Source of the DNA: a virus | Lineage: Duplodnaviria; Caudoviricetes | Strand: one strand, 5' to 3' | Virus record (IMG/VR): IMGVR_UViG_3300021426_000009 | Location: 10,121-74,120 of that record | DNA length: 64,000 nt | In this document: positions 10,635 through 45,196 of the stretch, piece by piece | Position numbering within the stretch: position 1 is the stretch's first letter | How the letters are laid out: the number at the start of each line of letters is the position of its first letter | Position numbers and translations under genes: made by a program | The notes under the pieces: generated by a model | The model's database searches: none | Told to the model about the DNA's origin: nothing | What the model saw: only the letters and a program-made list of their open reading frames with translations

Positions 10635-10638
10635 AGAT

Positions 10639-10974: not shown

Positions 10975-10977
10975 CCT

Positions 10978-11472: not shown

Positions 11473-11511
11473 AAAAATGTTAGCAACAATGCGATTTCTC
11501 GGAAAAATGTG

Positions 11512-11541
11512 CTTGATTTTCAATCATTTTTTGTACCTTTG
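11512..11541 (+). promoter_or_regulatory. Promoter of the replication operon (-7 TACCTTTG at 11534) with CTTGA-TTT-TCAAT palindrome
   Basis: Near-identical architecture to promoters at 23314-23343 and 33391-33420. Confidence 0.7.
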
Positions 11542-11555
11542 CAAAAGAAATCAAA

Positions 11556-11670
11556 CATTCTGCTTAGTGACATTCGCAGAAGTAAGTGGAAAGATATTTA
11601 GGGTTCTAAGCAGTCTGGCTTCTAATGTCACCTTCGAAAGAAGAGAGGTCAGCTGTTTGGGACCTTTTAC
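11556..11670 (+). ncRNA. Structured 5' leader of the replication initiator gene
   Basis: Complementary boxes 11560-67/11606-13 and 11567-74/11624-31; CTTC-GAAA-GAAG hairpin; AGGTC/GACCT stem followed by T's. Confidence 0.5.
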
Positions 11671-11678
11671 ATACTGAT

Positions 11679-12566
11679 ATGGCGACAGGAGACATAAAGT
11701 TGAACCGCTTGATAACGGAAGACCCTCTATACAGGAAGGAGCCGTTCACGAAATGGCAGGCATGGCTTGACCTCATCCTGTCGGCCTGCTATGAGCCCGG
11801 AGACATGTTCGTCAGGGGCATCAAGGTCAAGATGAAGAGGGGGAGCGTGTACAAGAGTGCCATGGAACTGGCGGAACGCTGGAAATGGAGCCGTGGCAAG
11901 GTCGAGCGCTTCATAGCCTACCTCGCAGAGGAGAAGAGGATCGTCCTGCAGAAGAGCAAGGTCATCAGCAGTATGGCCATCGTAGGATATGACGCATATG
12001 CGATTGATGATGACGGCTCTCAGGATGCGGTGCTTCAGAAGCTCATGGCGCAGATGTCGGAACTCAAGGAGAGGGTGGATGCGAGCGAACAGCCCATCCT
12101 CACTCCCGAGGAGCCGAAGGCTGAGACGAAGAAGACCCCGAGGAAGAAGAACGTGAATCCCCTCATCACGAAGGGCAGGGAGGTCTTCGAGTCGAAGTAC
12201 TCAGACTTGTTCGACGGAGCGGCATACTACTGGCAGGCCAAGGATGCGGCAGCCATGGACTCCCTGACTAAGAAGATAATATACGCACGCAAGCAGAAGA
12301 ACATGCCCACAGAGGATGACGATGTCATCAAGGCCCTCGTGGTACTTCTTGACTCGATAGTCGACCCGTGGGTGACGAAGAACTTCAGCGTGACGAACAT
12401 AAACAGCAAGTATAACGAGATCGTTGCTCAGGCAAGGGCTGCGGTCACAAGTGGAAAAGGCAATGGAACTAATCAATCTACAAAGGAGGCTCGAGCCAAC
12501 GATGCAGCCAGCATTATCGCCCGACTTGCAGCGCAAGAAGGAAACGATGATAGCCCGGTACGGTGA
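11679..12566 (+). CDS. Phage replication initiator protein
   Basis: GDIKLNR...LY...F...QAWLDL and ELAERWKWSRGKVERFI wHTH typical of Bacteroidetes phage initiators. Confidence 0.75.
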   Translation: MATGDIKLNRLITEDPLYRKEPFTKWQAWLDLILSACYEPGDMFVRGIKVKMKRGSVYKSAMELAERWKWSRGKVERFIAYLAEEKRIVLQKSKVISSMAIVGYDAYAIDDDGSQDAVLQKLMAQMSELKERVDASEQPILTPEEPKAETKKTPRKKNVNPLITKGREVFESKYSDLFDGAAYYWQAKDAAAMDSLTKKIIYARKQKNMPTEDDDVIKALVVLLDSIVDPWVTKNFSVTNINSKYNEIVAQARAAVTSGKGNGTNQSTKEARANDAASIIARLAAQEGNDDSPVR

Positions 12567-13293
12567 CAGGCAGACGTTCCTGTCGAAGTTCAACCCTGAC
12601 CTGCAGATGAGGATCTGCAAGGACAAGCAGCTTTGCTTCTTCGGTGATGCGCCAGTGCTCTCGGAACTGAATATGACCTACGGGGAAATGACGGCAACGA
12701 TGTGGCTGATACCACAGCTGTACGACCTCTCGGAATACTGTGGATGCAAAGAGAAGCTGCAGGGACGTCCCCTCGAGCAGTGTGCCAGCGTGATAGCGGC
12801 AGAGTTCTTCTACCTGAAGGTGTCGGAGCTGATGCTGTTCTTCCATAGGTTCAAGTCGGGAAGGTACGGCAGGTTCTACGGCTCGGTTGACCCGATGGTC
12901 ATCACGACGTCACTGAGGACATTCCTCACGGAGCGTGTCACGGAAATCGAGGAGAGGGACAAGAGGGAGAAGGAGATTGCCGACAGGGAGGCACGTAAGG
13001 GAGCGATAACCTATGAGGAGTATGTGGCAAGGAACGGCAGGATGGAGAACGTCACCGCAGACCCTCTCAGGAACCCGATAGCAGCCGTTGCACGTCCGCA
13101 AAGGACGGAGAGGAAGGCGATGACAGAGGATGAGCTCTTGAAGATGGCTCATGACATCGTGGACAACATCTACAATGCCGACGAGAGTACGATGGACAGC
13201 TTCAGGAAGGCATTCAGGAGATATGCCAATGCCGACCCCGAGGACTATCTGAAGACTCACTCAGGAAACCCTCAAAGGGATTCAAGACCGTGA
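12463..13293 (+). CDS. Putative helicase loader / replication partner (DUF6633-like)
   Basis: Overlaps the initiator; LKVSELMLFFHRFKSGRYGRFYGSVDP motif. Confidence 0.6.
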   Translation: MELINLQRRLEPTMQPALSPDLQRKKETMIARYGDRQTFLSKFNPDLQMRICKDKQLCFFGDAPVLSELNMTYGEMTATMWLIPQLYDLSEYCGCKEKLQGRPLEQCASVIAAEFFYLKVSELMLFFHRFKSGRYGRFYGSVDPMVITTSLRTFLTERVTEIEERDKREKEIADREARKGAITYEEYVARNGRMENVTADPLRNPIAAVARPQRTERKAMTEDELLKMAHDIVDNIYNADESTMDSFRKAFRRYANADPEDYLKTHSGNPQRDSRP

Positions 13294-19226: not shown

Positions 19227-19877
19227 ATGGAATTTTTCAAGACGATTGCAGATTTCCTGCAGGACGGCCAACAGGTTACGATGGCCATCAGAAAGAGCGG
19301 TGGCAACATCGCAGTGAGTATCATGCCCGACAACCGAGGTGTCAAGGATAAGGCAGTGGAGAACATCACTCCGCTGGTCATGAGCGGCACACCCGAAGAC
19401 TTCGAGGAAGGCTTCAAGGATGCCCTCAAGCCGCTGGCACAGGCTCAGGGACTGGTGTCCAACATCAAGGAGTTCGAGGAGGGAACGGAGAAGGCAAAGC
19501 GTGAGTCCGAAATGGCTAAGAAGCTCAAGGACGAGGCGGCCAAGCAGAAGAAGGAGTTCAACGACCTCATCACTCTCGCACGTAAGAACAAGGACGAGCA
19601 CAAGTTCAAGGATGCACGTTCCATCCTCGCCAAGGCATCGGCACTGCCGTCTGCCGACAAGGCTCTCATCGGTAAGGTGATGAAGGAGATCGACGATACA
19701 GCCGGTGTGGGCAACATGTTCATACAGGAGGAGGACAAGAGTGACGGCAAGGACTTGGGAGCCAAGGCTCCTGAGAAACCTTCAGAGGCAAAGCCCGAAG
19801 ATGCAGCAGCTGCTGACGCTTTTGCTCAGGCAATGGAGTTAGATGACAATGATAACGAAAACGAAGAGGAGGAATAG
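19227..19877 (+). CDS. PRTRC system protein E
   Basis: MEFF..IA, I.VS..P and PLVMSGTPEDFEEGF..AL..P motifs; first gene of the cassette. Confidence 0.85.
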   Translation: MEFFKTIADFLQDGQQVTMAIRKSGGNIAVSIMPDNRGVKDKAVENITPLVMSGTPEDFEEGFKDALKPLAQAQGLVSNIKEFEEGTEKAKRESEMAKKLKDEAAKQKKEFNDLITLARKNKDEHKFKDARSILAKASALPSADKALIGKVMKEIDDTAGVGNMFIQEEDKSDGKDLGAKAPEKPSEAKPEDAAAADAFAQAMELDDNDNENEEEE

Positions 19878-19880
19878 TAT

Positions 19881-20093
19881 ATGGCACTGAATGTAACAGG
19901 AATGAAGCGTGTGTTCAAGCATGGAACACGAGAGTTGGAAGACCCCGACAAGAACATGTCCCCTGAAGAGGTGATGCAGTTCTACTCGGCTACCTATCCA
20001 GAGTTGACGACGAGTAACGTACACGGCCCGAAGGTCGATGACCGTAACAGGGCTGTGTATGAGTTCAAGACGACAGTTGGTACTAAGGGATGA
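19881..20093 (+). CDS. PRTRC system protein C (ubiquitin-like, C-terminal Gly)
   Basis: LEDPDKNMSPEEVMQFYSATYPELTT ... TTVGTKG-stop. Confidence 0.9.
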   Translation: MALNVTGMKRVFKHGTRELEDPDKNMSPEEVMQFYSATYPELTTSNVHGPKVDDRNRAVYEFKTTVGTKG

Positions 20094-20097
20094 AGAA

Positions 20098-21285
20098 ATG
20101 CAACAAGGAGCTACCAGAGTTTCACAAGGCTTTGTATTCGGTACTGGAGTCAGAACGAAGGCAAGAGTTCAGGGCAAGGGACGAGGAGCGGCAACCGCTG
20201 CTCCCTCCCTCTGCGCCCCTGCTTTTCTGACCTCCCCGATACGACCGATACGTCCGACGAGCGAAGATACCGCTGCAAGGCTGGAGATAGACATAGACAA
20301 GAGCTATGCCAACGTCTCCGCAAGCCTTAGGCGGTTCTTCAAGGTCGTTGGTATCGAGTACGACTACGAGCCGAAGAAGGACCTCACAAGGGCTCAGCAG
20401 CTTGGAGAGCTGATAGACTACGGAGAGAAGAAGATGGATTCTCTCGGACTTTCCCTTGCGGTCAGTAAGAAGGATTGTCAAGGAGGCGATGTCGATACCC
20501 TTGAATGTGTGGTGTATCGGTGGGGTAAGGAGTTAGAGGACACGATCGTCATCCTCTATTGTGCCCCTGCTGTATATATGTCCCCTGAAGGTTGTCAGAT
20601 GTACAAGCGGTTCATGAAGTTCGTCACGGTGAGCACGGGAATACCTCTCGGCATCCCTGAGCATACGGAGAACTTCTACCTTGACTGCATCGTCAACATG
20701 GATGATGACTACATGTACGAGGATGAAGAGGAAGAGGAAAAAGACCCTGTCATCCTGAAGTACAGGCAGGACGGTGAGTTCTGGAACCTCTTCGACGAGA
20801 TTGGAGGACTGCCTAAGGAGAAGCCTGGCGATCTGTATGCAGCACTCGATGACTACCGCCAGCGATGTCCGGATGATGAGACAGAGGTGGTGGAGGCCAT
20901 GATGGAGGGCATAGACATCATCAAGTATGCGAACTACTACTGGTTCGAGTTCAACCCAGACGATGACGGGCTTCCCAACGAGTGGGGCAACGACAGCGCA
21001 GACGGATATGCAAGCAGCGTGTTCGCCTCTGCCATCCTCTTCTCCGAGCAGGACGGAATCTCAGAGCAGCTGCTGGACACCGTGAACAACGAAGTGAATG
21101 CCGGTATCATGATGACTGGCTGGAATATTCATCAATGGCTGTCACCGAAGACGGCGAAGGCCGACATACTCGAGTTCATGCGATGCAAGGACCTGTGCGC
21201 ATCACTCGATGACTGGCTGAGGACGTTCTATCGGGCAACCGAGAAATTTGACTTATATGGGAAATCTGAGCAAGATACTGAATGA
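20098..21285 (+). CDS. PRTRC-associated protein (protein F position)
   Basis: Sits between C and B; acidic, about 395 aa; likely start MQQG at 20098. Confidence 0.6.
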   Translation: MQQGATRVSQGFVFGTGVRTKARVQGKGRGAATAAPSLCAPAFLTSPIRPIRPTSEDTAARLEIDIDKSYANVSASLRRFFKVVGIEYDYEPKKDLTRAQQLGELIDYGEKKMDSLGLSLAVSKKDCQGGDVDTLECVVYRWGKELEDTIVILYCAPAVYMSPEGCQMYKRFMKFVTVSTGIPLGIPEHTENFYLDCIVNMDDDYMYEDEEEEEKDPVILKYRQDGEFWNLFDEIGGLPKEKPGDLYAALDDYRQRCPDDETEVVEAMMEGIDIIKYANYYWFEFNPDDDGLPNEWGNDSADGYASSVFASAILFSEQDGISEQLLDTVNNEVNAGIMMTGWNIHQWLSPKTAKADILEFMRCKDLCASLDDWLRTFYRATEKFDLYGKSEQDTE

Positions 21286-21955
21286 GAAACTGGAGGCTAC
21301 CGATGCTTTGGTGTTCTACAAGAGCAACCTCAATGAGGGTGCGTATGTGGAGCATCGTCCAATCATAAACGGAGCGATGTGCGCAGGTAAGCCTCTCGAA
21401 GTCGATGTCATAGCAAAGCTGCTGAAGACGGTCGACAAGTATGCGCACGGAACAACGTCGATGGTGTCACTCCATGGAGAGATACCTGAGAACCTGCTGT
21501 ATGCCAGTACGAGCATCGACTCCTACCGACTGGTGTGGTACAGGAAGCCGGAGAAGAGAATGTTCTTTTTCTCCGAGAGCCTCGGCATACCGAACGGGGA
21601 GGTGATGGTTCCTGGTCTTGTCTATGTGACGGACGGCAAAGGCCTCTCGATGTATGCCTTCAAGGGAAGGAAGCCGAAGAAGCTGCTGTATCAGGCTCCG
21701 TTCTTCAATACGAGCACAAACGTATGCCTCGGAAACGGAAAGCTGCCAAAGCCGAAGGATCAGACCTATGCGAACTGGATGGCCTACTGGGAGGAGCTGT
21801 TTTGGAAGACGGAGTTCTCCCACCTGATGGGCGGCAACCCTGTCAAGGGTAACCTCTCCATCATCATGAAGGAGTGCATAAGCGGTCACAAACCGTTCCC
21901 TGTGAACTCACTGATAGCAACAAGAACAACCCTACAAGCATTATACAGGAAATGA
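21257..21955 (+). CDS. PRTRC system protein B (prokaryotic E2-like)
   Basis: LVWYRKPEKR..FF, VPGLVY and LYQAPFFN...NVCLGN (candidate catalytic Cys), WEELFWKTEFSH. Confidence 0.88.
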   Translation: MGNLSKILNEKLEATDALVFYKSNLNEGAYVEHRPIINGAMCAGKPLEVDVIAKLLKTVDKYAHGTTSMVSLHGEIPENLLYASTSIDSYRLVWYRKPEKRMFFFSESLGIPNGEVMVPGLVYVTDGKGLSMYAFKGRKPKKLLYQAPFFNTSTNVCLGNGKLPKPKDQTYANWMAYWEELFWKTEFSHLMGGNPVKGNLSIIMKECISGHKPFPVNSLIATRTTLQALYRK

Positions 21956-22728
21956 AGTACAAGCATTATGTTCATCCGTACATTTTAGACCCTGCGCATC
22001 CGCTGACGGTAGCCTTGATAGGTGCCGGAGGGACAGGCTCACAGGTGTTGACCTCCCTCGGTAGGATGAATTACGCATTGAGGGAGCTCGGCCATCAGGG
22101 CCTGCATGTGAAGGTGTATGACGCAGACATCGTGACAGCTGCCAACTGCGGACGTCAGCTTTTCTCCCCAGTGGAGGTAGGACGGAACAAGGCAGAGGTG
22201 TTGACAACGAAGCTGAACATGTTCTTCGGAACGTCATGGGAAAGCATCCCCGAAATGTATGACGAGAGGACTGGACACACGAACTTCGTGATTTCATGCG
22301 TCGATACGGTTGCATCGAGGCTGGCCATCAGGAAGAACATTATCAGGGAGGACTCAAGAGCCGCCCGTGGCTATGACATGGAGAGAAGCTACTACTGGCT
22401 GGACTTCGGCAACACGCAGTCCACAGGTCAGGTGATACTCGGAACGACGAGAGACCTCTCCTGCAACAAGCGGAAGGATAATGTCGGTCTGTTAAGGTGC
22501 GTGACGGACTTCTTCGACCTCAGCAAGGTCAACGAGAAGAAGAGCGGCCCAAGCTGCTCACTCGCTGAAGCACTGACGAAGCAAGACCTGTTCATCAACT
22601 CTACTCTCGCCCAGATAGGCATGGCGATTCTTTGGAAGATGTTCTCGAAGGGAGTACTGGAGACACAGGGTGCCTTCCTGAACCTCGATACGATGAAAGT
22701 GAATCCGATAAAGGTAGAGAAGATATGA
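21952..22728 (+). CDS. PRTRC ThiF-family E1-like enzyme
   Basis: LIGAGGTGSQV, D.D.V..ANCGRQ, ISCVD, WLDFGN and PSCSLAEAL..QDLFIN motifs. Confidence 0.92.
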   Translation: MKYKHYVHPYILDPAHPLTVALIGAGGTGSQVLTSLGRMNYALRELGHQGLHVKVYDADIVTAANCGRQLFSPVEVGRNKAEVLTTKLNMFFGTSWESIPEMYDERTGHTNFVISCVDTVASRLAIRKNIIREDSRAARGYDMERSYYWLDFGNTQSTGQVILGTTRDLSCNKRKDNVGLLRCVTDFFDLSKVNEKKSGPSCSLAEALTKQDLFINSTLAQIGMAILWKMFSKGVLETQGAFLNLDTMKVNPIKVEKI

Positions 22729-23363: not shown

Positions 23364-23762
23364 ATGAAGATATATACAAGTTATTTCGGAAACCTCAGAG
23401 CGTTAGGAAACGCTGGCATAATGCCGATCAGCATAGCAAGATATTCGCCAAAATGGTATGACGGGGCACGTTTCCCTGGTGTCGCTCCGACGAGTTACAT
23501 GCTCAGCGGTGCTTGCAGCCATGAGGAATACCTGAAGAAGTATCAGGAGATACTGAACAGACTGGACCCTCATCAGGTGATTAAGAACATTCAGGCATTC
23601 AGCGGAGGCAGGGACGTGGCTCTCTGCTGCTACGAGAAGCCTGGCGATTTCTGTCACCGACACCTCCTTTCGGAATGGCTGAGGAACAACGGCTATGATG
23701 TGAATGAATGGAAGCCGGAGGAGAAGAAGGAGGAAGTCCAGCAGCTGTCGCTATTCGATTAG
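23364..23762 (+). CDS. DUF488-like protein
   Basis: MKIYTSYF, ISIAR..PKWY, LAP-like GVAPT and LCCYEKPGDFCHRHL motifs. Confidence 0.8.
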   Translation: MKIYTSYFGNLRALGNAGIMPISIARYSPKWYDGARFPGVAPTSYMLSGACSHEEYLKKYQEILNRLDPHQVIKNIQAFSGGRDVALCCYEKPGDFCHRHLLSEWLRNNGYDVNEWKPEEKKEEVQQLSLFD

Positions 23763-23837: not shown

Positions 23838-23911
23838 GGACCGATAGCTCAGCAGGATAGAGCGGCTGCCTCCTAAGCAGCAGGTCGGGGGTTCGAATCC
23901 CTTTCGGTTCA
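23838..23911 (+). tRNA. tRNA-Arg(CCT)
   Basis: Full cloverleaf: GGACCGA/TCGGTTC, GCTC/GAGC, GCTGC-CTCCTAA-GCAGC, GGGGG-TTCGAAT-CCCTT. Confidence 0.92.
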
Positions 23912-23968
23912 CAGACTGGAGAAGATGTAGGGGTCAGGGTGAAATCCATAAGCCCTGATGAGTAAAGG

Positions 23969-24021
23969 GAAGCCAGATGTGGATGCTGGCAAACATGCAG
24001 GTTCGAATCCTGTCAGCTTCA
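23969..24021 (+). ncRNA. Truncated tRNA-like element (acceptor-like stem, one hairpin, perfect T-arm)
   Basis: GAAGC/GCTTC, GCCAG/CTGGC and GCAGG-TTCGAAT-CCTGT; no canonical D plus anticodon arms. Confidence 0.45.
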
Positions 24022-24027
24022 AAGGTT

Positions 24028-24097
24028 TAGCAGTTAGCTCAAGTAGAGCGCCCGATCGCTAATCGGGAGGTTAAGGGTTCGAGTCCCTTACTGCGCA
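24028..24097 (+). tRNA. Non-canonical tRNA-like RNA, anticodon GCT in a class-I body
   Basis: CCCGA-TCGCTAA-TCGGG arm with C33; short variable loop; only 5 acceptor pairs (GCAGT/ACTGC); 5-nt D loop. Confidence 0.6.
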
Positions 24098-24185
24098 TCT
24101 ATATCGGTGTTCCGTTACGGAGCGAGTAAGTCCAGGAAAAGAGGCACGCAGTCCAATCGACATGACCGAAACGGACACCGAAAAT

Positions 24186-24257
24186 CGCGGAGTAGAGCAG
24201 TGGTAGCTCGCTACGCTCATAACGTAGAGGTCGCAGGTTCGAGCCCTGTCTCCGCAA
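24186..24257 (+). tRNA. tRNA-Met(CAT), initiator-like body
   Basis: CGCGGAG/CTCCGCA with C1:A72 mismatch; CTACG-CTCATAA-CGTAG anticodon arm. Confidence 0.88.
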
Positions 24258-24332
24258 CAGAGAGAGTACTTAGCCGTAGAGGAAACTCCCCAATAAACAC
24301 GAAACGGCATGAACGTGCGAGTCGTCATGGTA

Positions 24333-24419
24333 GAACAAGTAGCTATAAGTCGGTAGTCCGACATTGGTGAGAGCCCCGTCGTGTACGGGAGGTTTTGGGT
24401 TCGAGTCCCGACTTGTTCA
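24333..24419 (+). tRNA. Non-canonical tRNA-like RNA (nominal anticodon GTG) with a hairpin inserted in the D loop
   Basis: GAACAAG/CTTGTTC 7-bp acceptor; GTCGG-TAGT-CCGAC insert; CCCG-TCGTGTA-CGGG; TTGGG-TTCGAGT-CCCGA. Confidence 0.55.
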
Positions 24420-24436: not shown

Positions 24437-25504
24437 ATGAAAGTAGCAATTATCGGAACTGGGAACGTCGGCATCGCCATAGCTGCCGACTTGTCTATCA
24501 GGGAGCATGAGGTGTCCCTGATAAAGACGTCAAATGTGAGATCGGAGGCCTATGACAGGCTTCTCAGGAACAACAACCGTGTGTACTTAAAGGAGGACGG
24601 AACCTATACGCAGACCACCATCAAGGAGGTAACACGGGACATCACTAAGATTTCGGATGCGGAGGTGGTCATCGTGACCATCCAGAGCACCTACCACGAA
24701 GAGCTGTACAAGAGGATAGCCCCGTATCTGAAAGGCAGTCAGGTGGTGCTCATCATCTGCAGCTATATGTCTTCTTTCTACCTGTCGAAGTATTGTCAGG
24801 TGCTGCCTGCCATCGCAGAGGCTACTGGCCCCTACCTCGAGGGTCGTGTGGAACTGAACGATATGAAGGAAGAGGTGGTATTTAGGGTAGGATGCAGGCT
24901 TACGAGAAGCCCGCTGTCGGTGTTCCATCCAAATCGTGCCAATGAGTGCATGGAGAAGCTGAAAGCCCTGTACAAGGGCCTGAGCAACGACTACTCTGTC
25001 ATAGAGTCAGCCCTGCTGAACCCGAACCTCGTGATTCACACCGTAGGAGCCGTCATGAGCATCCCTCGCATCGAGTACAGCGACGGGAACTTCTGCATGT
25101 ATCGTGAGGCTTACAGTCACAAGAACCAGGCCACGCTCAACGTCATGTTCAAGCTGGATGAGGAGAAGAAGAAAGTTCTGATAGCGCTCAACAGCAGGGG
25201 TATCGACATCTTGGAGGCCGGTGGCTTCCTGAAGGGCATGGAGAGCTTCTATGAGTATTCCGAGTCGGAAGACAGGGCCATCAGTCCGACCTCGATACAC
25301 TCGAGATACATCACGGAGGACGTTTCTCAGGGACTGGTACTGATGGAGAGCATAGCCAACTATCTCGGTATCATCGTGCCAGTTACGACTTCTCTCATAG
25401 ACCTCGCAAGCGCAGCCCTCGGCATTGATTTCAGGCTCGAGGGACGCAGTATATTCTCGCTGGATGCCGACAGATACATTGACCACCTGACGCATAGACT
25501 ATGA
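24437..25504 (+). CDS. NAD(P)-dependent opine (octopine/nopaline) dehydrogenase family protein
   Basis: MKVAIIGTGNVG Rossmann motif; LLNPNLVIHTVG and SRYITEDVSQGL match Octopine_DH domain motifs. Confidence 0.88.
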   Translation: MKVAIIGTGNVGIAIAADLSIREHEVSLIKTSNVRSEAYDRLLRNNNRVYLKEDGTYTQTTIKEVTRDITKISDAEVVIVTIQSTYHEELYKRIAPYLKGSQVVLIICSYMSSFYLSKYCQVLPAIAEATGPYLEGRVELNDMKEEVVFRVGCRLTRSPLSVFHPNRANECMEKLKALYKGLSNDYSVIESALLNPNLVIHTVGAVMSIPRIEYSDGNFCMYREAYSHKNQATLNVMFKLDEEKKKVLIALNSRGIDILEAGGFLKGMESFYEYSESEDRAISPTSIHSRYITEDVSQGLVLMESIANYLGIIVPVTTSLIDLASAALGIDFRLEGRSIFSLDADRYIDHLTHRL

Positions 25505-27576
25505 ATATCGGAGAAGACCTGAAGACCCGAACCTTCGGTGTGGAGATAGAAATGTGTAACCTCGACAGGCAACTGGTCAAGCTGCCGGATGGTTACTCAT
25601 GGAGCAAGGATGAGGAAATCGTGAATACGGACGGGTCGAGCAACAAGCGTTTCGGTGGAGAGGTGAACACCCCTCCACTCTGTGTTTACAGCATGAAGGA
25701 CCTCCACAGCCTGAAGGCCTGCTATGACTCCATGAGGGAGGCTGGAGGTGTGATAAAATGGACTACCTACACGCACGTCCATGTTTATGCAGGAGACCTG
25801 ACTGTCGAGCATATAAAGAAGGTATGGCTCTTCTTCTATATCTGCTACCCTTGGTGGAAGAGATACACGAAACTCTCCGACTGGGACGAGCTGACGTTCA
25901 ACTGCCAGCCGCTGCCGACAGAGAAGTACTACAAGGGACTGCTGGAGGCAGAGACCTTCGAGGACATCAACAAGCTGTTCACGAACCAGTCGAAGAAGGG
26001 ATTCATCAGGCATGCCTGCAATATCTCAGCATACTTCAAGACGAAGACCATAGAGTTCAGGACATATCACGGCACGAGCGATTTCAGGGAGGCCATGAAC
26101 TGCGTCCTCTCGACGTACCGTCTGTTCTACTATGCCGTCAACCATGATTTGGATGACTACAAATCCATTTCCTCATATGAGCAGTTTTTGCAGGCTACGG
26201 GACTCAAATACGAGGTCCCAAGAGAGCTTGTTCCTCTACTCTACCAAGGAAACCCCTATAGTGCCATCGAGACGTTCCAGACGAGATCCCTGCCGTATAA
26301 CTCGAAGCAGGCATCGGCATTGTGGGAGGCCGTCAAGAATCACGGGCACAAGGAGCTCTGCATCGTGAACGGCTTCATGTACTACTACGAGCTGTTCTTT
26401 ATGGACAAGGTGAAGCTCTCCATCTATGCCCAGGACCCGTACTGCCATCTGCTGTGGATGATAGCCAACGGCAAGATAACGCTGAAGTACAAGGAGAAGT
26501 TGTCATGGCTGGAGGACTATAATAACGAAACCCCGTCACGGCAGCTTGCGATTGCCTTGTATGCGGAGAAACTGCAGAAGTTCTCAATGAGCGATTCCAA
26601 GAGGAACGAGGCTGTCATCGAGTCGGTCAAGATACGTGCCAAGGAATCCATCGAGAAGACGGAGAAGGGCTGCGAACGTCTCATGAAGCTGCTGACCACC
26701 TGCGAGTACCATGTTGGAACGCTTCAGGATGCCATACCTCAGAAGAGCGTGATATTCTTCAACTACGGCAAGGACAAGACGCAGAAGCGAACGTTCAAGC
26801 TGATAGCGGAGAACAGCGACTTGGAAATGGAGTTCAACTGCAAGCGCAATGACTACTACGAGGTGATAGAGTCCCTGCCAAAGGAGTCATACTTCTATTA
26901 CTTCAGCAACAGCCCGTACCTGCGTAACATGCACAAGCTGGCCATGTGGGACTCGTCAAGCGGAGACAGGTGGTCTGCAGGCCGTTTCCTGTACTGCAAC
27001 AAGCCGAGCAACCAGAATCAGGTCAGCACGTCATACAAGTCGAACCATGTGGAGGTGAACGAGATCGTCCCGCCTGATGACCTGGTCATCGACAACCCGA
27101 ACAGCCTGAAGATAGTAAGGGTCAGCTCATCGTCACTCCATTGTCTTCAGAAGAAGTACATCAAGAAGGTCGACCAGTGCAGCATGTGCACCTATGCCTT
27201 CGTCGTGATGTACGAGAAGTACACCCTCGGAGGCTTCGGCTTCACGCTTCCTCAGCACAAGGGCTACGACCTGTTCCAGCTGACGGATTTCTGCACGAAC
27301 AACAATATCCCACGACTGGCGAAGCTGATACTGCTCTGCATACAGACGGCCGGTGTGCAGAAGGAACTCTCACGAAGGATGCACAAGCTGTGCGAGAAGG
27401 TCATATCATGTGCCTATACGCACAAGCCTGTCAGTATGAAGTACAGGGGTGTCTATACGAAGGTGAAGGAGCATTGCACAACCTCATACCTCGCATACGA
27501 GGGACAGCTGGGCAAGTTCGCCACCAACAAGGAGGTAATAGAGAAATATCGTAAAATGTTGAATAATGGAAATTGA
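25501..27576 (+). CDS. Three-domain protein: amidoligase (COOH-NH2 ligase type 2), degenerate adenine-MTase-like domain, Mom/GNAT-like C-terminus
   Basis: N-term RTFGVEIEM, DGS, GEVNTPPL, HVHV, TIEFR. C-term LTDF...RLAKLILL...CAYT.KPVSMKYRG resembles ParB-linked phage DNA-modification proteins. No NPPY/DPPY-type motif is visible in the middle domain. Confidence 0.72.
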   Translation: MNIGEDLKTRTFGVEIEMCNLDRQLVKLPDGYSWSKDEEIVNTDGSSNKRFGGEVNTPPLCVYSMKDLHSLKACYDSMREAGGVIKWTTYTHVHVYAGDLTVEHIKKVWLFFYICYPWWKRYTKLSDWDELTFNCQPLPTEKYYKGLLEAETFEDINKLFTNQSKKGFIRHACNISAYFKTKTIEFRTYHGTSDFREAMNCVLSTYRLFYYAVNHDLDDYKSISSYEQFLQATGLKYEVPRELVPLLYQGNPYSAIETFQTRSLPYNSKQASALWEAVKNHGHKELCIVNGFMYYYELFFMDKVKLSIYAQDPYCHLLWMIANGKITLKYKEKLSWLEDYNNETPSRQLAIALYAEKLQKFSMSDSKRNEAVIESVKIRAKESIEKTEKGCERLMKLLTTCEYHVGTLQDAIPQKSVIFFNYGKDKTQKRTFKLIAENSDLEMEFNCKRNDYYEVIESLPKESYFYYFSNSPYLRNMHKLAMWDSSSGDRWSAGRFLYCNKPSNQNQVSTSYKSNHVEVNEIVPPDDLVIDNPNSLKIVRVSSSSLHCLQKKYIKKVDQCSMCTYAFVVMYEKYTLGGFGFTLPQHKGYDLFQLTDFCTNNNIPRLAKLILLCIQTAGVQKELSRRMHKLCEKVISCAYTHKPVSMKYRGVYTKVKEHCTTSYLAYEGQLGKFATNKEVIEKYRKMLNNGN

Positions 27577-28267
27577 AGACAGATGGAAGTACGATGTGGT
27601 TGACATCAACCTCATCGACGAGGCGGAACTGAACGCCAATGAAATGACTGGAGAGGACTTCGCCACCTTGTGTGAGAACATCGGCAAGTCCGGACTGAGC
27701 AGTGTCCCGTGCTGCTACAAGAAGAAGAACGGAAGGTTCGGCATGATAAGCGGCCACCACAGGCTCAGGGCATGCAAGAAGAACCATTTCGCCAAGATCG
27801 GCATCCTTTGGTGTGACGAGGATGAGCTGTCTCAGGATGAGATTATAGCCATCCAGCTGTCTCACAACTCGCTGCACGGAGAGGACAACAAGAGCATCCT
27901 GAAGAAGTTGTTCGAGCAGATTCAGAGCATAGACTTCAAGAAGTTCGCCCACATCAACATCGACGAGGTGGCTCCCGTCAGCACGGACGGCATCAGCATC
28001 TTCGCCTTGAAGGAGAACTTCGTGTTCACGATAATACTCTACCCCAACTCGTTCGAGAACCTTGACGAGCTGTACGGGGACATACGTGAGCAGGCAAAGA
28101 AGAGCGATGCCCTCATTCTCGCAGACCAGACCAACGAAATGCTTCTGCTGAAGCTGCAGCAGGACATCGGCAACCAGTATAACATCAAGTCGCCATCCAT
28201 CACGTTCGCCAAGCTGCTGGAGCTGGCCAAGGAGAGGCTTGAGGAAGTGAAGGAGGGCAAGGAATGA
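27566..28267 (+). CDS. ParB/Srx-like protein
   Basis: ELNANEM, ISGHHRLRA and QLSHNSLHGED motifs. Confidence 0.88.
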   Translation: MEIEDRWKYDVVDINLIDEAELNANEMTGEDFATLCENIGKSGLSSVPCCYKKKNGRFGMISGHHRLRACKKNHFAKIGILWCDEDELSQDEIIAIQLSHNSLHGEDNKSILKKLFEQIQSIDFKKFAHINIDEVAPVSTDGISIFALKENFVFTIILYPNSFENLDELYGDIREQAKKSDALILADQTNEMLLLKLQQDIGNQYNIKSPSITFAKLLELAKERLEEVKEGKE

Positions 28268-29130
28268 TCTGGACGATAGTAAGCAAGGCCGAAATGGAGG
28301 GGTATGCCATCCCTCCAGTCTTCCAGTATTACAGGGAGGTAATAGGCAGGGAGAACATCAGCCTGTCTGTAGTGGACGAGGATGACCCTCTCGACTTCAT
28401 CAGATATGGTGATTTGGTGCTGTTACGCACGGCAAGCAGGAAGCTCATCGAGACGATAGAGAGTAAGGGTGTGGCCACTACGGCAGAGCACTACTCGGTC
28501 TATCAGCAGGCAAGCGACAAGGCAGAGCTGGGACGCTTTCTCTTCGAGCATGGCATCAAGGTGCCGAGACAGTACAGCATCGACAACCTCCAGCCGGGAA
28601 GCACGTATTTCGTCAAGCCTCGTTACGGAAGCGAGAGCTTCGGCATTACGGAACACAATATATGCCACAGCAAGGAAGATGTCAGGTTTCAGGTCATGCG
28701 GCTGCAGGAACTGGGCTATGAGAGTATCATCGAGGAGTTCATCGATGGAAATGATGCGACTGTAGCCTGCTATTACAATCCTGAGAACAGCGTAGTGTAT
28801 GCCCATGCCATTGCCGTCGATTGTGAGACGAAGGGCTCCATTCAGACGCACAAGGGCAAGTTCGACTACAATGAGTACTGCTATGCACTGAGAGGATCTG
28901 TAGGCAAGAAGGCTTGCGCCATGAGCAGGGAGGTGTTCAGATTACTCGGCATCAGGCATCATGCGAGGATAGACTTCCGCTTCACGGAGAGAGGTGATGT
29001 GTACCTCATCGACGTGAACCTGCTGCCCGGCCTCGGTCCGTCGGCTCATTTCTCGAAATGCCTGCTTCTGACGGAGAACATTTCGTATGCGGACACCATC
29101 ATGAACATTTTGAAATCAGCAAGAGGATAG
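28264..29130 (+). CDS. ATP-grasp ligase (Ddl/RimK-like)
   Basis: SDK, FVKPRYGSESFG, EEFIDG, RIDFR and IDVNLLPG motifs. Confidence 0.9.
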   Translation: MIWTIVSKAEMEGYAIPPVFQYYREVIGRENISLSVVDEDDPLDFIRYGDLVLLRTASRKLIETIESKGVATTAEHYSVYQQASDKAELGRFLFEHGIKVPRQYSIDNLQPGSTYFVKPRYGSESFGITEHNICHSKEDVRFQVMRLQELGYESIIEEFIDGNDATVACYYNPENSVVYAHAIAVDCETKGSIQTHKGKFDYNEYCYALRGSVGKKACAMSREVFRLLGIRHHARIDFRFTERGDVYLIDVNLLPGLGPSAHFSKCLLLTENISYADTIMNILKSARG

Positions 29131-29132
29131 AT

Positions 29133-29486
29133 ATGGCAAAGAACATTTCGATTGAGGACATCGTAAAGATGTACGAGAAGAAGGGTTGCAACATCACGGC
29201 AACCTGTGCTGCCCTGAATATCTCCCGTAAGACTTTCTACGAATGGAAGGAGAAGAAGAAGAAGCTCGCAGAGGGTCTGGAGGAGGCAGAGGAGGCTGTC
29301 CTCGACTGGGCAGAGAGCAAGCTGAAGGAGCATATCCAGAACGATGATCTGCAGGCCCTGATATTCTTCCTGAAGACGAAGGGTAAGAAGAGGGGCTATG
29401 TAGAGAAGACGGAGACCGACGTGAACATCAACCAATTCGAAAAGCTCATGCAGGAAACGGAGGATGATGACGATGACGATGAGTAA
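29133..29486 (+). CDS. terS: Terminase small subunit
   Basis: N-terminal HTH (CNITATCAALNISRKTFYEW), ALIFFLKTKGKKRGY; directly precedes terL. Confidence 0.82.
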   Translation: MAKNISIEDIVKMYEKKGCNITATCAALNISRKTFYEWKEKKKKLAEGLEEAEEAVLDWAESKLKEHIQNDDLQALIFFLKTKGKKRGYVEKTETDVNINQFEKLMQETEDDDDDDE

Positions 29487-30997
29487 TGGGTAGTTCCGAC
29501 AAGCGACATAACAAGATGCGAGCGTGGCGCAAGGACTGGTGTTTATTCGCCAAGCAAGTGCTCCACGCTCGTCTCGACAAAGAGCAGAAGGAAATCCTGC
29601 GAGCCATACAGAATGAACGCATGGTTGCCGTAGCTTCGGGTACAGCCCGAGGCAAGGACTATATTGCCGCTGTCGCATGCCTGTGCTTCATGTACCTCAC
29701 TCCCCGATGGAAGGACGGCCGTCTGGTGAAGAATACCAAGATTGCGATGACGGCTCCTACCGACCGACAGGTGAGGAACATCATGGTTCCTGAGGTCAGA
29801 CGTCTCTACAAGGCCGCTCAGGTGCTGCCTGGCCGTCTTGTCGGCTATGACATACGAACGGAGTATGAGGAATGGTTCCTGACAGGCTTCAAGTCGAGTG
29901 CGGACAATACGGAGGCATGGTCTGGATTCCATGCCGTGAACACGATGTTCGTGGTGACGGAGGCATCGGGTATCTCGGAGACTATTTACAATGCCATCGA
30001 GGGTAACCTGCAGGGCAACTCACGACTGCTGCTTGTGTTCAACCCGAACGTAACTACTGGCTATGCGGCCAATGCCATGAAGTCGGCACGTTTCAAGAAA
30101 TTCAGGCTCAACTCCCTGAATGCCGAGAACGTTGTCAGGAAGAAGAACGTCATCCCAGGTCAGGTGGACTATGAATGGGTGAAGGATAAGGTCGAGAACT
30201 GGTGCATCCCCATCAGGGAGGAAGATGTCAACGAGGGAGAGGGAGACTTCTTCTGGGAAGGACGCTGGTACAGACCGAACGACCTCTTCCGTGTCAAGGT
30301 TCTCGGAATGTTCCCGAAGGTGGCGGAGGACGTGCTCATACCATACGAATGGGTGGAGATTGCCAACAGACGATGGCTGGAGCTTCAGGAGGAGGGCTTC
30401 ACCACGAAGAAGAAATGCAGACTCGGTGTCGACGTGGCCGGTATGGGTCGAGACTCGTCCGTCCTGTCCCCGAGATACGGTAACTACCTCGGAGAGTTCG
30501 AAGTCCACAACTCCGCTGGTGTGGCAGACCACATGCACGTCGCAGGCATGGTGTCCAACTACCTCGTCAAGAAAGGCACGAAGGCCTTCATCGATACCAT
30601 CGGTGAGGGTGCAGGTGTCTATTCGAGGCTGAAAGAACTCGGCTACGACTATGCCTATTCGTGCAAGTTCTCGGAGAATGCCAACGGCCTCCATGACATC
30701 ACGGAGGTCTATACGTTCGCCAATATGCGTGCCTACCTGTACTGGGCTGTCAGGGACTGGCTGAACCCGAAGAACGGCTTCGAGCCTGCCGTACCGCCAA
30801 ACGATCTGTTTATGCAGGAGTGTACGGAGGTGCACTGGAAGTTCCAGAGCAGCGGAAGCATCATCATAGAGAGCAAGGATGACATCAAGAAGCGCCTCGG
30901 AAGGTCTCCTGACTACCTCGATTCGGTGGCCAACACGTTCTACCCGAGGGACTACGAGACACTGCAGGAAAGCGAGATTTTCGGAGATTTCCTCTAA
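29486..30997 (+). CDS. terL: Terminase large subunit
   Basis: SGTARGKDY, Walker B VVTEASG, coupling motif FNPN, nuclease motifs GVDVAGMG.D and SPDYLDS. Confidence 0.93.
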   Translation: MGSSDKRHNKMRAWRKDWCLFAKQVLHARLDKEQKEILRAIQNERMVAVASGTARGKDYIAAVACLCFMYLTPRWKDGRLVKNTKIAMTAPTDRQVRNIMVPEVRRLYKAAQVLPGRLVGYDIRTEYEEWFLTGFKSSADNTEAWSGFHAVNTMFVVTEASGISETIYNAIEGNLQGNSRLLLVFNPNVTTGYAANAMKSARFKKFRLNSLNAENVVRKKNVIPGQVDYEWVKDKVENWCIPIREEDVNEGEGDFFWEGRWYRPNDLFRVKVLGMFPKVAEDVLIPYEWVEIANRRWLELQEEGFTTKKKCRLGVDVAGMGRDSSVLSPRYGNYLGEFEVHNSAGVADHMHVAGMVSNYLVKKGTKAFIDTIGEGAGVYSRLKELGYDYAYSCKFSENANGLHDITEVYTFANMRAYLYWAVRDWLNPKNGFEPAVPPNDLFMQECTEVHWKFQSSGSIIIESKDDIKKRLGRSPDYLDSVANTFYPRDYETLQESEIFGDFL

Positions 30998-35500: not shown

Positions 35501-38014
35501 ATGGCAAGACCAAAAGGTATCAATCAGAAAGCCAAGTGGCGAGCACACTCCATCCGTCTGGCACGTTATGCGGACAGGGTGCAGTTGGTGTATGATACCT
35601 TGAATAGGGAGATTGCCAATTCCGTAGTAAGGGCGGGATATGACGGCACGGAGCCGTTCAGCTTCTCTGACTACCCCCTGACGAAGAAGAAGTTCGAAGA
35701 GGTGCAGGCTGCTTTCGTTAGCGACCTGCGCTCTGTCATTTTCTCGGGTACGTCACAGGAATGGAAGGAGAGCAACCTCATGCAGGATCTGCTTGCGGAC
35801 AAGGTTCTGAAGTTCTATGGTGTGAAGAAGGACGGCAAGAAGCACCGTGTCTATTACCAGTCGAACAACGATGCGCTGAAGGCATTCCAGCAGAGGAAGG
35901 AGAACGGCCTCGGTCTCTCGGAAAGACTTTGGAACCAGTCGAAGAACTACAAGGAGGAAATGGAGTATGCCATTTCGTCTGCCATCGAGAAGGGTACGTC
36001 TGCCGTCAAGTTGTCTAAGCGCCTGAGTAAGTATCTGCAGGATTTTCCATCACTCAAGCACGACTACAAGGAGAAGTTCGGAAAGGCCGTCAAGTGTCAG
36101 GACTGCGAGTACCGCTCCATCCGTCTGGCGAGGTCGGAGATAAACATGGCTTACAGGACTGCTGAGCAGGAACGCTGGAAGCAGTTTGATTTTGTATTGG
36201 GCTATGAGGTGAAGCTGACTCAGAATGGCCGTCATGTGCCGGACATCTGCGACGACCTTGCAGGCAAGTACCCGAAGGACTTCAAGTTCATGGGCTGGCA
36301 CCCGAACTGCATGTGCTATGTCATCCCAATCCTCAAGACTGAGGAGCAGTTCTGGAACGATGAGGATGCACCTGAGATTGCCGAGCCTCCTAAGAACTTC
36401 ACCGACTGGCTGAAGGATAATGCAGAGCGCATTGACAAGGCTGCGGAGAATGGTTCCCTCCCCTACTGGTACACGGACAATGAAAAGTATGTGAACTTTA
36501 GAGGTAAAAGTTCTTACGACCTTCTTGCTATGCCGGAAGGACTTCCATCGAAATACAGGGAGAAATTTGACGAGTTGGTTTCAAAAGCTGAAAGCCAAAT
36601 TGAGAACAAGGAGCAGTTCAGGTCATTCCAAGTGAACATCAAGCGTCTTGCTGAAATGCTTGCTGATGATAACGCAAGAGGAATGGTCGAGGAGCAGATG
36701 GGAGAATATTTCCTTGCATACATGGAAGATTATGCCAAGGGTAAGTCTATATATGTGTTTGAGGACCAAGTAAGAAAGTTCCAGGAGCGTTCGGGATTTG
36801 TCCGCAAACCGATAGAGCTGCGAATGCCAAAAATGGGAACTCTGCCATGTAATGCCGATGAAATTGTACGTTATCTCAATTCCGTAGAGTCGTTGGAGGA
36901 GTTTTATATAAGATATGGCTATCGGTCATACGATGAGTTCTTTGACGCTATTGGAGGCATAGATAAGATTGAGGATAAGCTTCAGTCCATAGCCGATGAA
37001 AGCCGTGTCTATATGTGCCTTGATTCAAGCACGTTCGAAAAGCAGATTCTCAAAGGTGATGGCAAGTTCAAAAACTCTCTTGAAACAGGAAAGGGTACGT
37101 TTAAGACTGTAGGAGAAGAACGTGCAACAAAGGAGCGTATCATGTTTGGTCTTTCGGATGCAGACTATGATGTTATGCCAAAGTATGGGTTCGTGGCAGG
37201 AAGAGAGACTATGGACTATGAGCAGATCGTCAGCTTTGGATATGGAGATACCTATGTGAGGTTTAGGGACGCTTCTGTTCGTGGAAGAACATCGATAACG
37301 TGCGGTGACTCATATGATGGCAATAGGCTTCTGAAGGGAAGGATGGGATATAGCATGTCCTCTCCAGCTGTACCGTTGGATCAGCCGGACGCTAATTTCT
37401 CTCTCGGCATTCTGTCTCATTCGAGGGATGGAGAGGTGGCTATCGAGAAACTGACGTCAGCAACGAAGCTATCGGAAATTCAAACATCTACCTATGTGGA
37501 GGCGCAGATATATGGTGTCCTTCGTATAGAAGATGTTGATGCAGTGTTCGTACAATCGAAAAAGCAGATGACTTCTCTGACCAAGCTCTTAAAGAAACAG
37601 GGTCTGGATATTGAGGTATTGCCGTGTGAATATGACACACGACTAAAGTATCTTGCCGATGGATTTACAAATTATGAAGGAAAGGCTTCGAAATATGCCC
37701 ATTCGCTGACGGACGGAGATTTGGACTTGCTTGGGGATTTCTACATCGATGGCCTCACGAAGAGGTTGGCCGACCCGAAGAACAGGTGGTGGGAAAAGAT
37801 TTCCATGCCTGACGAGTTTATGGAAACCATGAAGAAGATCGCTGATGGGGCAGCCACTTCATCGGAGAAGAGGGCATGGCTCAAATCCTACTACGCTGAG
37901 CTGAGGAAGAAAGGAAATGGTGTGTTCCCGAAGGTTTGGTGGCAGGACTATTCGCCAAGCTACGGTGGATGGGTATCGGATGTTTTGAACGAGAAATTAC
38001 TGAAAGGATTGTAA
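35501..38014 (+). CDS. MuF/SPP1 gp7-like head morphogenesis protein with long C-terminal extension (putative ADP-ribosyltransferase-like, DUF3626-like domain)
   Basis: RLARSEINMAY, CDDLAGKYPKDF.F.GWHPNCMC (MuF). C-terminal FKNSLETG, PKYG, YGD, TCGDS and YVEAQIYG motifs. Confidence 0.8.
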   Translation: MARPKGINQKAKWRAHSIRLARYADRVQLVYDTLNREIANSVVRAGYDGTEPFSFSDYPLTKKKFEEVQAAFVSDLRSVIFSGTSQEWKESNLMQDLLADKVLKFYGVKKDGKKHRVYYQSNNDALKAFQQRKENGLGLSERLWNQSKNYKEEMEYAISSAIEKGTSAVKLSKRLSKYLQDFPSLKHDYKEKFGKAVKCQDCEYRSIRLARSEINMAYRTAEQERWKQFDFVLGYEVKLTQNGRHVPDICDDLAGKYPKDFKFMGWHPNCMCYVIPILKTEEQFWNDEDAPEIAEPPKNFTDWLKDNAERIDKAAENGSLPYWYTDNEKYVNFRGKSSYDLLAMPEGLPSKYREKFDELVSKAESQIENKEQFRSFQVNIKRLAEMLADDNARGMVEEQMGEYFLAYMEDYAKGKSIYVFEDQVRKFQERSGFVRKPIELRMPKMGTLPCNADEIVRYLNSVESLEEFYIRYGYRSYDEFFDAIGGIDKIEDKLQSIADESRVYMCLDSSTFEKQILKGDGKFKNSLETGKGTFKTVGEERATKERIMFGLSDADYDVMPKYGFVAGRETMDYEQIVSFGYGDTYVRFRDASVRGRTSITCGDSYDGNRLLKGRMGYSMSSPAVPLDQPDANFSLGILSHSRDGEVAIEKLTSATKLSEIQTSTYVEAQIYGVLRIEDVDAVFVQSKKQMTSLTKLLKKQGLDIEVLPCEYDTRLKYLADGFTNYEGKASKYAHSLTDGDLDLLGDFYIDGLTKRLADPKNRWWEKISMPDEFMETMKKIADGAATSSEKRAWLKSYYAELRKKGNGVFPKVWWQDYSPSYGGWVSDVLNEKLLKGL

Positions 38015-45120: not shown

Positions 45121-45194
45121 GCGGAGATAGCTCAGCTGGTCAGAGCGTGGCAATTCCATTGTCAAGGTCGGTGGTCCGACTCCACCTCTCCGCT
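45121..45194 (+). tRNA. tRNA-Gly(TCC) inside the tail operon
   Basis: GCGGAGA/TCTCCGC plus U73; GCTC-AGCTGGTCA-GAGC; TGGCA-ATTCCAT-TGTCA; GGTGG-TCCGACT-CCACC (atypical T loop). Confidence 0.78.
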
Positions 45195-45196
45195 CT

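Follow-up and report, generated by a model that had tools for sequence, protein, structure and literature searches.

The window analyzed here comprises 64,000 nucleotides (bases 10121-74120) of the 74,120-bp IMG/VR virus record IMGVR_UViG_3300021426_000009, which carries direct terminal repeats, is rated complete and derives from a gut phage of the Prevotella type. Nearly all long open reading frames (ORFs) of the window are encoded on the plus strand. One of these, located between a cluster of five tRNA-like genes and the terminase genes, encodes a protein, P0001, in which an amidoligase domain, a domain with the fold of Dam-type DNA adenine methyltransferases and a GNAT-like domain are fused into a single chain (Table 1). 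An ATGA overlap joins the stop codon of the preceding gene to the start of the fusion gene, whose 3' end overlaps the downstream ParB-like gene by 11 nt, and the fusion gene is translationally coupled to both neighbours. The analyses described below indicate that the most likely role of P0001 is that of core 'writer' in a conserved, terminase-linked module which modifies the phage's own DNA with an amino-acid-derived group.

Three-domain architecture of P0001

A previous, sequence-only reading described the gene as an amidoligase fused to an apparently inactive methyltransferase-like domain and a Mom-like domain, and proposed AlphaFold domain parsing as a check. All the strings it quoted are present in P0001: FGVEIEM (12-18), GGEVNTPP (52-59), HVHVY (92-96) and TIEFRTY (183-189) in the amidoligase part, and KLSWLEDY (333-340), VIFFNYG (417-423), LTDF (594-597), RLAKLIL (605-611) and SMKYRG (645-650) in the rest of the protein. 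Using 26 relatives (22-90% identity), we obtained an AlphaFold2 model with a mean predicted local distance difference test score (pLDDT) of 87.9, which displays three separate and confidently predicted domains, corresponding to residues 1-246, 263-502 and 530-691. The structural matches reported here were obtained by re-aligning Foldseek candidates against the domains of this model, and conservation was counted over 26 family sequences, down to 22% identity.

The N-terminal domain matches the Pfam family Amidoligase_2 (PF12224; residues 46-200, E = 4e-16, 60 bits versus a cut-off of 22). The best solved structures for residues 1-246 include YbdK (1tt4/1r8g) and the plant gamma-glutamylcysteine ligase (2gwc), at Z 11.5 with 205-216 residues aligned, as well as glutamine synthetase. 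Ten residues of the domain, E15, E17, G52, T57, P59, H94, R170, T183, E185 and R187, are invariant in the family, and E54 is conserved in at least 90% of the sequences. By analogy with other enzymes of this fold, E15, E17, E54, H94, R170, E185 and R187, which supply an ExE on strand 1, a further E, an H, an R and an ExR, are the presumptive metal- and phosphate-binding set. The previous assignment of residues ~1-240 to an amidoligase is thus borne out by the profile match, the fold and the invariant catalytic motifs. P0001 and its relatives share the fold and the invariant acidic, histidine and arginine set with Amidoligase_2 proteins, YbdK, gamma-glutamylcysteine ligase and glutamine synthetase, but differ from all of these in that the domain forms the N-terminal part of a nucleic-acid-type enzyme. 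Amidoligase genes have been noted in thymidine hypermodification clusters, although not fused as in P0001 (PMC8989533). The amidoligase and GNAT domains, which flank the Dam-like domain, contain 5.3 and 5.6 invariant residues per 100, respectively, and, judging from their sequences, both look active.

The middle domain matches the Pfam family DAM-like-phage2 (PF22556, 'Phage DNA adenine methylase-like domain 2') over the whole profile (residues 239-419, E = 1.6e-95, 318 bits, cut-off 27). Residues 263-502 of the model align with E. coli Dam at Z 10.5 (185 residues, root-mean-square deviation [rmsd] 4.5) and with DpnM at Z 9.4. Since individual domains can become blurred in a large model, the middle domain was also refolded alone (residues 255-535, pLDDT 73) and aligned, without Foldseek, to 48,161 representative chains. 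The top four were all D12-class methyltransferases, namely, E. coli Dam (Z 9.3), Mcbe1 (8.6), T4 Dam (8.1) and DpnM (7.8), and all but one of the remaining matches listed had the Rossmann fold of the S-adenosylmethionine (SAM)-dependent methyltransferase type, with Z of 7.5 or lower. The Rossmann methyltransferase fold predicted previously for this region was therefore recovered, but its proposed kinship with ParB-linked N6_N4 (beta) methylases was not, the structural matches pointing to the Dam/D12 (alpha) class instead. The likeness to the D12 enzymes (E. coli Dam, T4 Dam and DpnM; PF02086) includes a five-helix insert at residues 332-400, between strands 3 and 4, at the place of the target-recognition region of Dam, and extends to FSNS at 468-471, which resembles ISNH of Dam. 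The beta-hairpin of the DNA-reading region of Dam is not seen in the P0001 model.

Despite the similarity in fold, the catalytic motifs of D12 enzymes are missing. Motif correspondences with Dam, and with Mom below, were established by strand order and aligned ranges rather than by residue-level superposition. Strand 1 of Dam and its FVGAG loop correspond to residues 285-294 (ELCIV-NGFMY), where the strand (285-289) is followed by N290-G-F-M-Y in place of FxGxG and where the family consensus is VNPxxY. Similarly, SVVYC-DPPY of Dam corresponds to SVIFF-NYGK at 416-424, where strand 417-420 (VIFF) leads into NYGK; the family consensus at this place has a Q with variable residues after it. The earlier remark that VIFFNYG occupies the place of an (S/D/N)PP-type motif agrees with this positional match. 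Neither P0001 nor any part of the family in the 26-sequence alignment has the glycine-rich SAM loop or DPPY, no position within residues 263-401 is conserved in at least 90% of the sequences, and P0001 is not matched at E values up to 1 by the Pfam D12 model (PF02086), which scores E. coli Dam itself at 273 bits. An ESM Atlas feature search with the middle domain returned no usable match. The ratio of nonsynonymous to synonymous substitution rates in the Dam-like domain is 0.05-0.10 in comparisons with six relatives at 83-90% identity, like in the flanking domains, and the domain is not decaying. Because its motifs are lost, yet purifying selection is strong, the middle domain appears to be a constrained, non-methylating module, and its inactivity, suspected in the sequence-only reading, is well supported.

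The C-terminal domain matches the Pfam family GNAT-phage-like (PF22559; residues 535-685, E = 5e-41, 141 bits, cut-off 27). The best solved match to residues 530-672 is Mom of phage Mu (8bv8_A; Z 11.1, 134 residues, rmsd 3.0), followed by other GNATs, including coenzyme A (CoA)-bound ones, at Z 9.3-9.7. Invariant in the family are G577, D596, S645-M-K-Y-R-G650 and Y666. The Q/RxxGxG/A loop, which binds the CoA pyrophosphate between strand 4 and helix 3, is absent: P0001 reads TNNNIPRLAK, with no glycine, and the family consensus is NNxVPRLSK. The Pfam Mom model (PF25680) did not match at E values up to 10 for the isolated domain or up to 1 for the whole protein. Thus, the label 'Mom-like' given to this region earlier holds for the fold, for which Mom is the best match, but finds no significant support in the sequence.

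Mu Mom moves glycine from Gly-tRNAGly onto N6 of deoxyadenosine in double-stranded DNA (Silva et al. 2026, PMC13219725). The P0001 domain and Mom share the GNAT fold, and both are phage-encoded, basic and devoid of the canonical CoA loop. Furthermore, Mom uses Gly-tRNAGly, and relatives of the P0001 gene carry their own adjoining tRNA-Gly genes. The differences are also considerable. The P0001 domain, with ~162 residues compared to 231 in Mom, is ~70 residues shorter, and strand 664-669 is followed by only six residues and one terminal helix. Activity of Mom depends on R111, S124, R151 and a helix-turn-helix (HTH)-like insertion at residues 175-209 (PMC13219725), whereas the residues invariant in the P0001 family, D596, K647, Y648 and R649 among them, are different ones, the complete set being D596, SMKYRG and Y666 along with G577. 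Placed by strand position, P603-R604 falls in the loop that follows strand 4, and residue 606 is Ala in P0001 and Ser or Ala in its relatives. Finally, unlike Mom, the GNAT domain of P0001 is fused to Dam-like and amidoligase domains, has no detectable sequence homology to Mom, and belongs to a family which is always paired with ParB-like and DUF488 genes.

The three-domain architecture is already present in Pfam and PHROGs, but is labelled there by shape only: PF22556 and PF22559 are shape-defined families, and the whole of P0001 belongs to phrog_2443, 'amidoligase enzyme'. Searches with the fusion protein against NCBIfam and PADLOC yielded no matches, and neither phmmer nor hmmsearch of PDB sequences with the protein or its family gave a real match. 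No near relative was found by megablast and tblastn against the phage collection, in which the GNAT part alone matched mycobacteriophage genes, and we found no paper on the three-domain architecture or on PF22555, PF22556 and PF22559. The family profile weakly matches the ubiquitin 'IPPDQQRLIFAGKQ' region (E = 0.04) with residues 225-274 (window 26173-26322). We judged this match to be due to chance, given that polyubiquitin repeats help the score and that the model shows a helix followed by coil, rather than a beta-grasp, in this segment.

Neighbouring genes, tRNA genes and relatives

The genes of the window follow the order DUF488-N3a, five tRNA-like genes, opine-dehydrogenase-like gene, fusion gene, ParB-fold gene, ATP-grasp gene, and small and large terminase genes (Table 1). 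The opine-dehydrogenase-like ORF is open from TTG at 24395, and its first ATG, at 24437, lies past the last tRNA-like element.

Table 1. Coordinates of the fusion gene, its domains and other features in the window
Feature	Position	Strand	Remarks
PRTRC-type cassette	19227-22728		Upstream of the module; PRTRC_E 19227-19877; Prok-E2_D 21248-21955; ThiF-like E1 21874-22728
DUF488-N3a gene	23364-23762	+	Conserved upstream module member; in relatives' loci and 77/80 IMG/VR loci
Five tRNA-like genes	23838-24419	+	Between DUF488 and enzyme genes; tRNA genes at same place in 79/80 relatives
tRNA Arg(CCT)	23838-23912	+	
Odd tRNA-like element	23921-24021	+	Rfam tRNA score 22.9 bits
'Ser'(GCT) tRNA	24027-24099	+	Without long arm
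Initiator-like tRNA Met(CAT)	24186-24258	+	
Odd tRNA-like element	24333-24419	+	Rfam tRNA score 29.7 bits
Opine (octopine/CENDH-type) dehydrogenase-like gene	24437-25504	+	Octopine_DH E 1e-26; PDB 1bg6 E 3.6e-12; 65/80 relatives
Three-domain ORF (P0001)	25501-27576	+	691 aa; ATG start; 0 internal stops; full-length relatives down to 22% identity
Amidoligase domain, residues 1-246	25501-26238	+	Glutamine synthetase/gamma-glutamylcysteine ligase fold; PF12224; YbdK match
Dam-like (D12-class methyltransferase fold) domain, residues 263-502	26287-27006	+	PF22556; Dam structure match; conservation
PPDD, residues 524-527	27070-27081	+	Linker before GNAT domain; conserved in 21-22/26 family members
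GNAT-like domain, residues 530-691	27088-27573	+	PF22559; Mu Mom 8bv8 structure match; net charge +14
ParB N-terminal (CTPase-fold)-like gene, ISGHHR box	27566-28267	+	Noc/ParB E 2e-6; 80/80 relatives; distant loci too
D-Ala-D-Ala-ligase-like (Ddl-like) ATP-grasp gene	28264-29130	+	80/80 close relatives; absent from several distant loci
Small terminase gene	29058-29486	+	Directly downstream
Large terminase gene	29486-30997	+	Directly downstream
tRNA-Gly(UCC)	45121-45195	+	Acceptor stem GCGGAGA...UCUCCGC-U as in relatives' module-linked tRNA-Gly; T loop TCC, not TTC

At least 482 viral contigs in IMG/VR encode a relative of P0001, and 80 loci with 61-90% identity were compared. The ParB-like and ATP-grasp genes are present in all of these loci, and the DUF488 and opine-dehydrogenase-like (ODH-like) genes in most (Table 1), with the order being constant. 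In more distant relatives, at 24-73% identity, the core order is maintained, with DUF488 upstream of the fusion gene, which overlaps the ParB_N gene downstream, and with the small and large terminase genes following ParB_N. The remaining slots are variable and can be occupied by opine-dehydrogenase-like proteins, radical-SAM lysine-2,3-aminomutase-like proteins, proteins of 250-300 residues or an extra N-terminal acetyltransferase domain, and the ATP-grasp gene is present in some of these relatives and missing from others. A core writer whose accompanying amino-acid enzymes can be exchanged is the arrangement expected of a hypermodification cluster that diversifies. In one distant locus (L010, 2635-6400), a relative of 873 aa carries the extra N-terminal acetyltransferase domain. 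The gene that precedes it, the radical-SAM lysine-2,3-aminomutase-like one, suggests that this lineage uses a building block of the beta-lysine type. The phage's own genome contains no thymidylate-synthase-like or tRNA-guanine-transglycosylase-like gene, so that a direct, post-replicative route is likelier than the known 5-hydroxymethyldeoxyuridine (pre-replicative pyrimidine) or deazaguanine routes.

The tRNA genes are tightly linked to the module. In 79 of the 80 loci, plus-strand tRNA genes are located no more than 2 kb upstream of the fusion gene, and none is found elsewhere in the loci. A Gly-type acceptor (GCG...CGC, U73) is present in 123 of the 151 module-linked tRNAs, with the anticodons of the Gly-type tRNAs being ACC (50), CCC (44), UCC (10) and GCC (2), and with 18 anticodon loops of abnormal size. 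In 55 module-linked tRNAs of the relatives, TTC in the T loop is replaced by TGC. Three loci (L027, L029 and L044) and ~45 others in IMG/VR carry paired tRNA-Gly genes, ~100-1200 nt upstream of the fusion gene, in which one member has the ACC anticodon and the TGC T loop, and the other has the CCC anticodon and a normal T loop. A tRNA-Gly(UCC) gene is located directly 5' of the fusion gene in relatives with 73% (L013) and 39% (L015) identity. In the L013 locus (9970-12630), a LAGLIDADG-type insert is present within the large terminase (886 aa). Because Mom is a Gly-tRNAGly-dependent N6-deoxyadenosine transferase, the tRNA linkage represents the strongest functional clue.

Staphylococcal tRNAGly species dedicated to cell-wall synthesis also carry TGC in the T loop, are non-proteogenic and avoid EF-Tu (PMC7826273). 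The Fem-type transferases which they serve in Staphylococcus are described as enzymes of the GNAT fold which draw amino acids from tRNA for purposes other than translation (PMC7826273), and the TGC T loop of their dedicated tRNAGly recurs in the 55 tRNAs mentioned above. Unlike what is proposed for P0001, Fem enzymes act on peptidoglycan precursors, and they have a duplicated GNAT fold.

Three of the five tRNA-like genes adjacent to the module in the window itself are also unusual. The two odd elements have good acceptor and T arms, with 27-60 nt inserted in the D/anticodon region. The 'Ser' tRNA has the anticodon GCU, C at position 33 and two mismatches atop the acceptor stem. Its body (5' UAGCAGU ... 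ACUGCG 3') is common to the closest relatives (L017 2614-2689, L018 2741-2812, L019 2764-2838 and L021 2736-2808), and the anticodon carried by it changes from phage to phage, being GAU, CCU, GCU or GUU. Judging from these sequences, the anticodon of this tRNA seems to be free of the decoding constraint.

A sibling family, in which DAM-like-phage1 and GNAT-phage-like domains are joined in proteins of ~430 residues (phrog_7858; for example, gene 74 of Mycobacterium phage Argie), is homologous to the P0001 family across the whole Dam-like and GNAT part (hhalign E = 3.9e-45, 412 columns). The two families share the SMKYRG and D-F motifs, a ParB-like gene downstream and tRNA-Gly upstream; in the cultured phage Argie, tRNA-Gly(UCC) precedes the sibling gene and the ParB-like gene follows it. 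The sibling differs from P0001 in lacking the amidoligase domain and in keeping GCSGNF..E, SND and PTYxGGYE, motifs that have degenerated in the proteins with three domains; of the corresponding residues, only E297 and D312 survive in P0001. Thus, in the three-domain lineage, a Dam-like domain that was atypical to begin with would have degenerated further; the comparison of the two-domain family with Dam by hhalign was not significant. One sibling protein (P0243, 770 aa) has an HNH domain inserted inside the Dam-like domain, a mobile insert like the LAGLIDADG-type one of L013.

The PRTRC-type cassette upstream was considered as a possible part of the module and set apart, given that it is absent from the relatives' loci examined. 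An 837-residue ORF located after the portal gene (window 35501-38014) has no Pfam match at E 0.001.

Proposed function and alternatives

Collectively, the domain composition, the tRNA linkage and the parallel with Mom suggest that the module hypermodifies phage DNA after replication with a group of the aminoacyl type, probably in a tRNA-dependent manner, and that the amidoligase extends this group. We assign this interpretation roughly an even chance of being correct. All steps of the mechanism outlined here are inferred. The basic GNAT-like domain would take an aminoacyl group, or a short acyl group, off a charged tRNA and attach it to the exocyclic amine of a base, most likely N6 of adenine by parallel with Mu Mom and Gly-tRNAGly. 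The Dam-like domain, having lost methyl transfer, would serve as a fixed scaffold positioning the nucleic acid. It may hold DNA and the target base, as Dam does and as the sequence-only reading proposed; alternatively, it may hold the aminoacyl-adenosine end of the tRNA, a possible ligand because, like SAM, it consists of adenosine and an amino acid. The glutamine-synthetase-type amidoligase would use ATP to form another amide bond, either on the adduct or on the group's donor, as an extension or cap, for example, by gamma-glutamyl-type ligation, and substrate channelling within one P0001 chain is plausible. The opine-dehydrogenase-like and ATP-grasp neighbours would supply or add more amino-acid chemistry, whereas the ParB-like and DUF488 proteins would work with the writer on DNA around the time of packaging. 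The likely benefit would be the shielding of virion DNA from host nucleases.

A more elaborate form of this scheme is possible but tentative. The module might build a multi-part, peptide- or opine-like base adduct, with the Mom-type GNAT domain loading an amino acid from a phage-encoded, non-decoding tRNA, the glutamine-synthetase-type amidoligase acting on DNA or on the tRNA-borne donor to lengthen the adduct, the dead Dam domain providing site recognition, and the swappable neighbours, that is, opine dehydrogenase, lysine aminomutase, ATP-grasp and the extra acetyltransferase, diversifying the chemistry between phages.

Several observations weigh against hypermodification by a tRNA-dependent writer. 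The lead of Mom over ordinary GNATs is modest, 1.4 Z units, and profile comparisons by hhalign are not significant, either for Mom (E = 0.82 for the family against Mu Mom and 0.09 for the GNAT profile against the Mom profile) or for E. coli Dam (E = 0.27 for the fusion family). As the Pfam D12 and Mom models are both unmatched, there is no sequence-level tie to Dam or Mom. The P0001 model has no counterpart of the HTH-like insertion essential in Mom, and the candidate match of Mom S124, placed by strand position only, is Ala in P0001 and Ser or Ala in its relatives. The Dam-like domain is not notably basic, with a net charge of about +5, compared to +14 for the GNAT domain, and standalone amidoligases without an assigned function are common in phages. 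With respect to the tRNAs, those adjacent to the module in the window are not of the Gly type, the Gly-type tRNA being located 17 kb away. Moreover, tRNA and Rfam scans of four distant three-domain loci revealed no tRNA gene nearby; hence, tRNA linkage is not universal in the three-domain family.

Among the alternatives, a target other than DNA is unlikely, although it has to be weighed most seriously: P0001 could modify tRNA, another RNA or a protein, or a peptide- or opine-like metabolite could be assembled on tRNA or on a free substrate. Small molecules and peptides are the typical products of pathways with Amidoligase_2 proteins, ATP-grasp enzymes and opine dehydrogenases, there is precedent for non-ribosomal peptide chemistry that depends on tRNA (PMC7826273), and DNA binding by P0001 is itself putative. 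However, in its fold the middle domain most resembles DNA adenine methyltransferases, down to the helical target-recognition insert, the coupling to the ParB-fold and terminase genes is invariant, and Mom, the best match of the GNAT domain, acts on double-stranded DNA (PMC13219725). Furthermore, phages keep ParB-linked DNA methylases at this very ParB/terminase place (10.1101/2025.10.10.680097), which also counts against a target other than DNA.

It is distinctly unlikely that DNA is modified in the same manner, but with an acyl-CoA or another thioester or ester as the GNAT donor, the nearby tRNAs being ordinary translation helpers. Most GNATs are CoA-dependent, CoA-bound members match the model at Z 9.3-9.7, the four distant loci do without tRNA genes, and the tRNAs adjacent to the module in the window include ordinary-looking Arg and Met species. 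By contrast, the TNNNIPRLAK loop lacks the pyrophosphate-binding motif, the tRNA genes of 79 out of 80 relatives are confined to a single position in the loci, the anticodons and T loops of module-linked tRNAs look unfit for decoding, and Mom, which matches best in structure, depends on tRNA. Finally, it is very improbable that the middle domain still works as a SAM-dependent methyltransferase whose motifs have diverged strongly, so that P0001 would also methylate DNA: the fold is preserved and purifying selection acts on it, and E297 and D312 align with the invariant Glu and Asp of the two-domain sibling, where the GCSGNF loop and SND are kept, but the glycine-rich loop has become N-G-F-M-Y (V-N-P-x-x-Y in the family), DPPY has given way to non-conserved residues, residues 263-401 contain no position conserved in at least 90% of sequences, and the D12 Pfam model is unmatched at E 1.

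Distribution and implications

Full-length relatives of P0001 are found in Bacteroidota, with 74% identity in Prevotella isolates and 89% in fragments of Prevotella metagenome-assembled genomes, and further ones in Alistipes, Muribaculaceae, Paludibacteraceae and Capnocytophaga, whereas the GNAT-like domain alone is spread over many phyla. Prophage carriers belong to Prevotella, Alistipes, Muribaculaceae and Capnocytophaga. Cultured carriers include Prevotella sp. KH2C16, P. vespertina A2879 and Muribaculaceae MF13079, as well as Mycobacterium phage Argie for the two-domain sibling.

To our knowledge, as of 2026, Mu Mom is the only characterized tRNA-dependent DNA hypermodification enzyme. The P0001 family is far more elaborate than Mom and, as its representation in at least 482 IMG/VR viral contigs illustrates, is widely encountered. 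If the proposed function is correct, the DNA of abundant gut phages would carry adducts of a new class, the methyltransferase fold would have a new role without catalysis, and the module-linked tRNAs would join those of staphylococcal cell-wall synthesis as a second example of tRNAs reserved for a task other than translation. Should the peptide- or opine-like adduct prove real, this would also be the first known glutamine-synthetase-type amidoligase to act on DNA or on a tRNA-borne donor. Adducts of this kind would have consequences for restriction and CRISPR targeting, as well as for efforts to sequence and clone DNA from gut phages.

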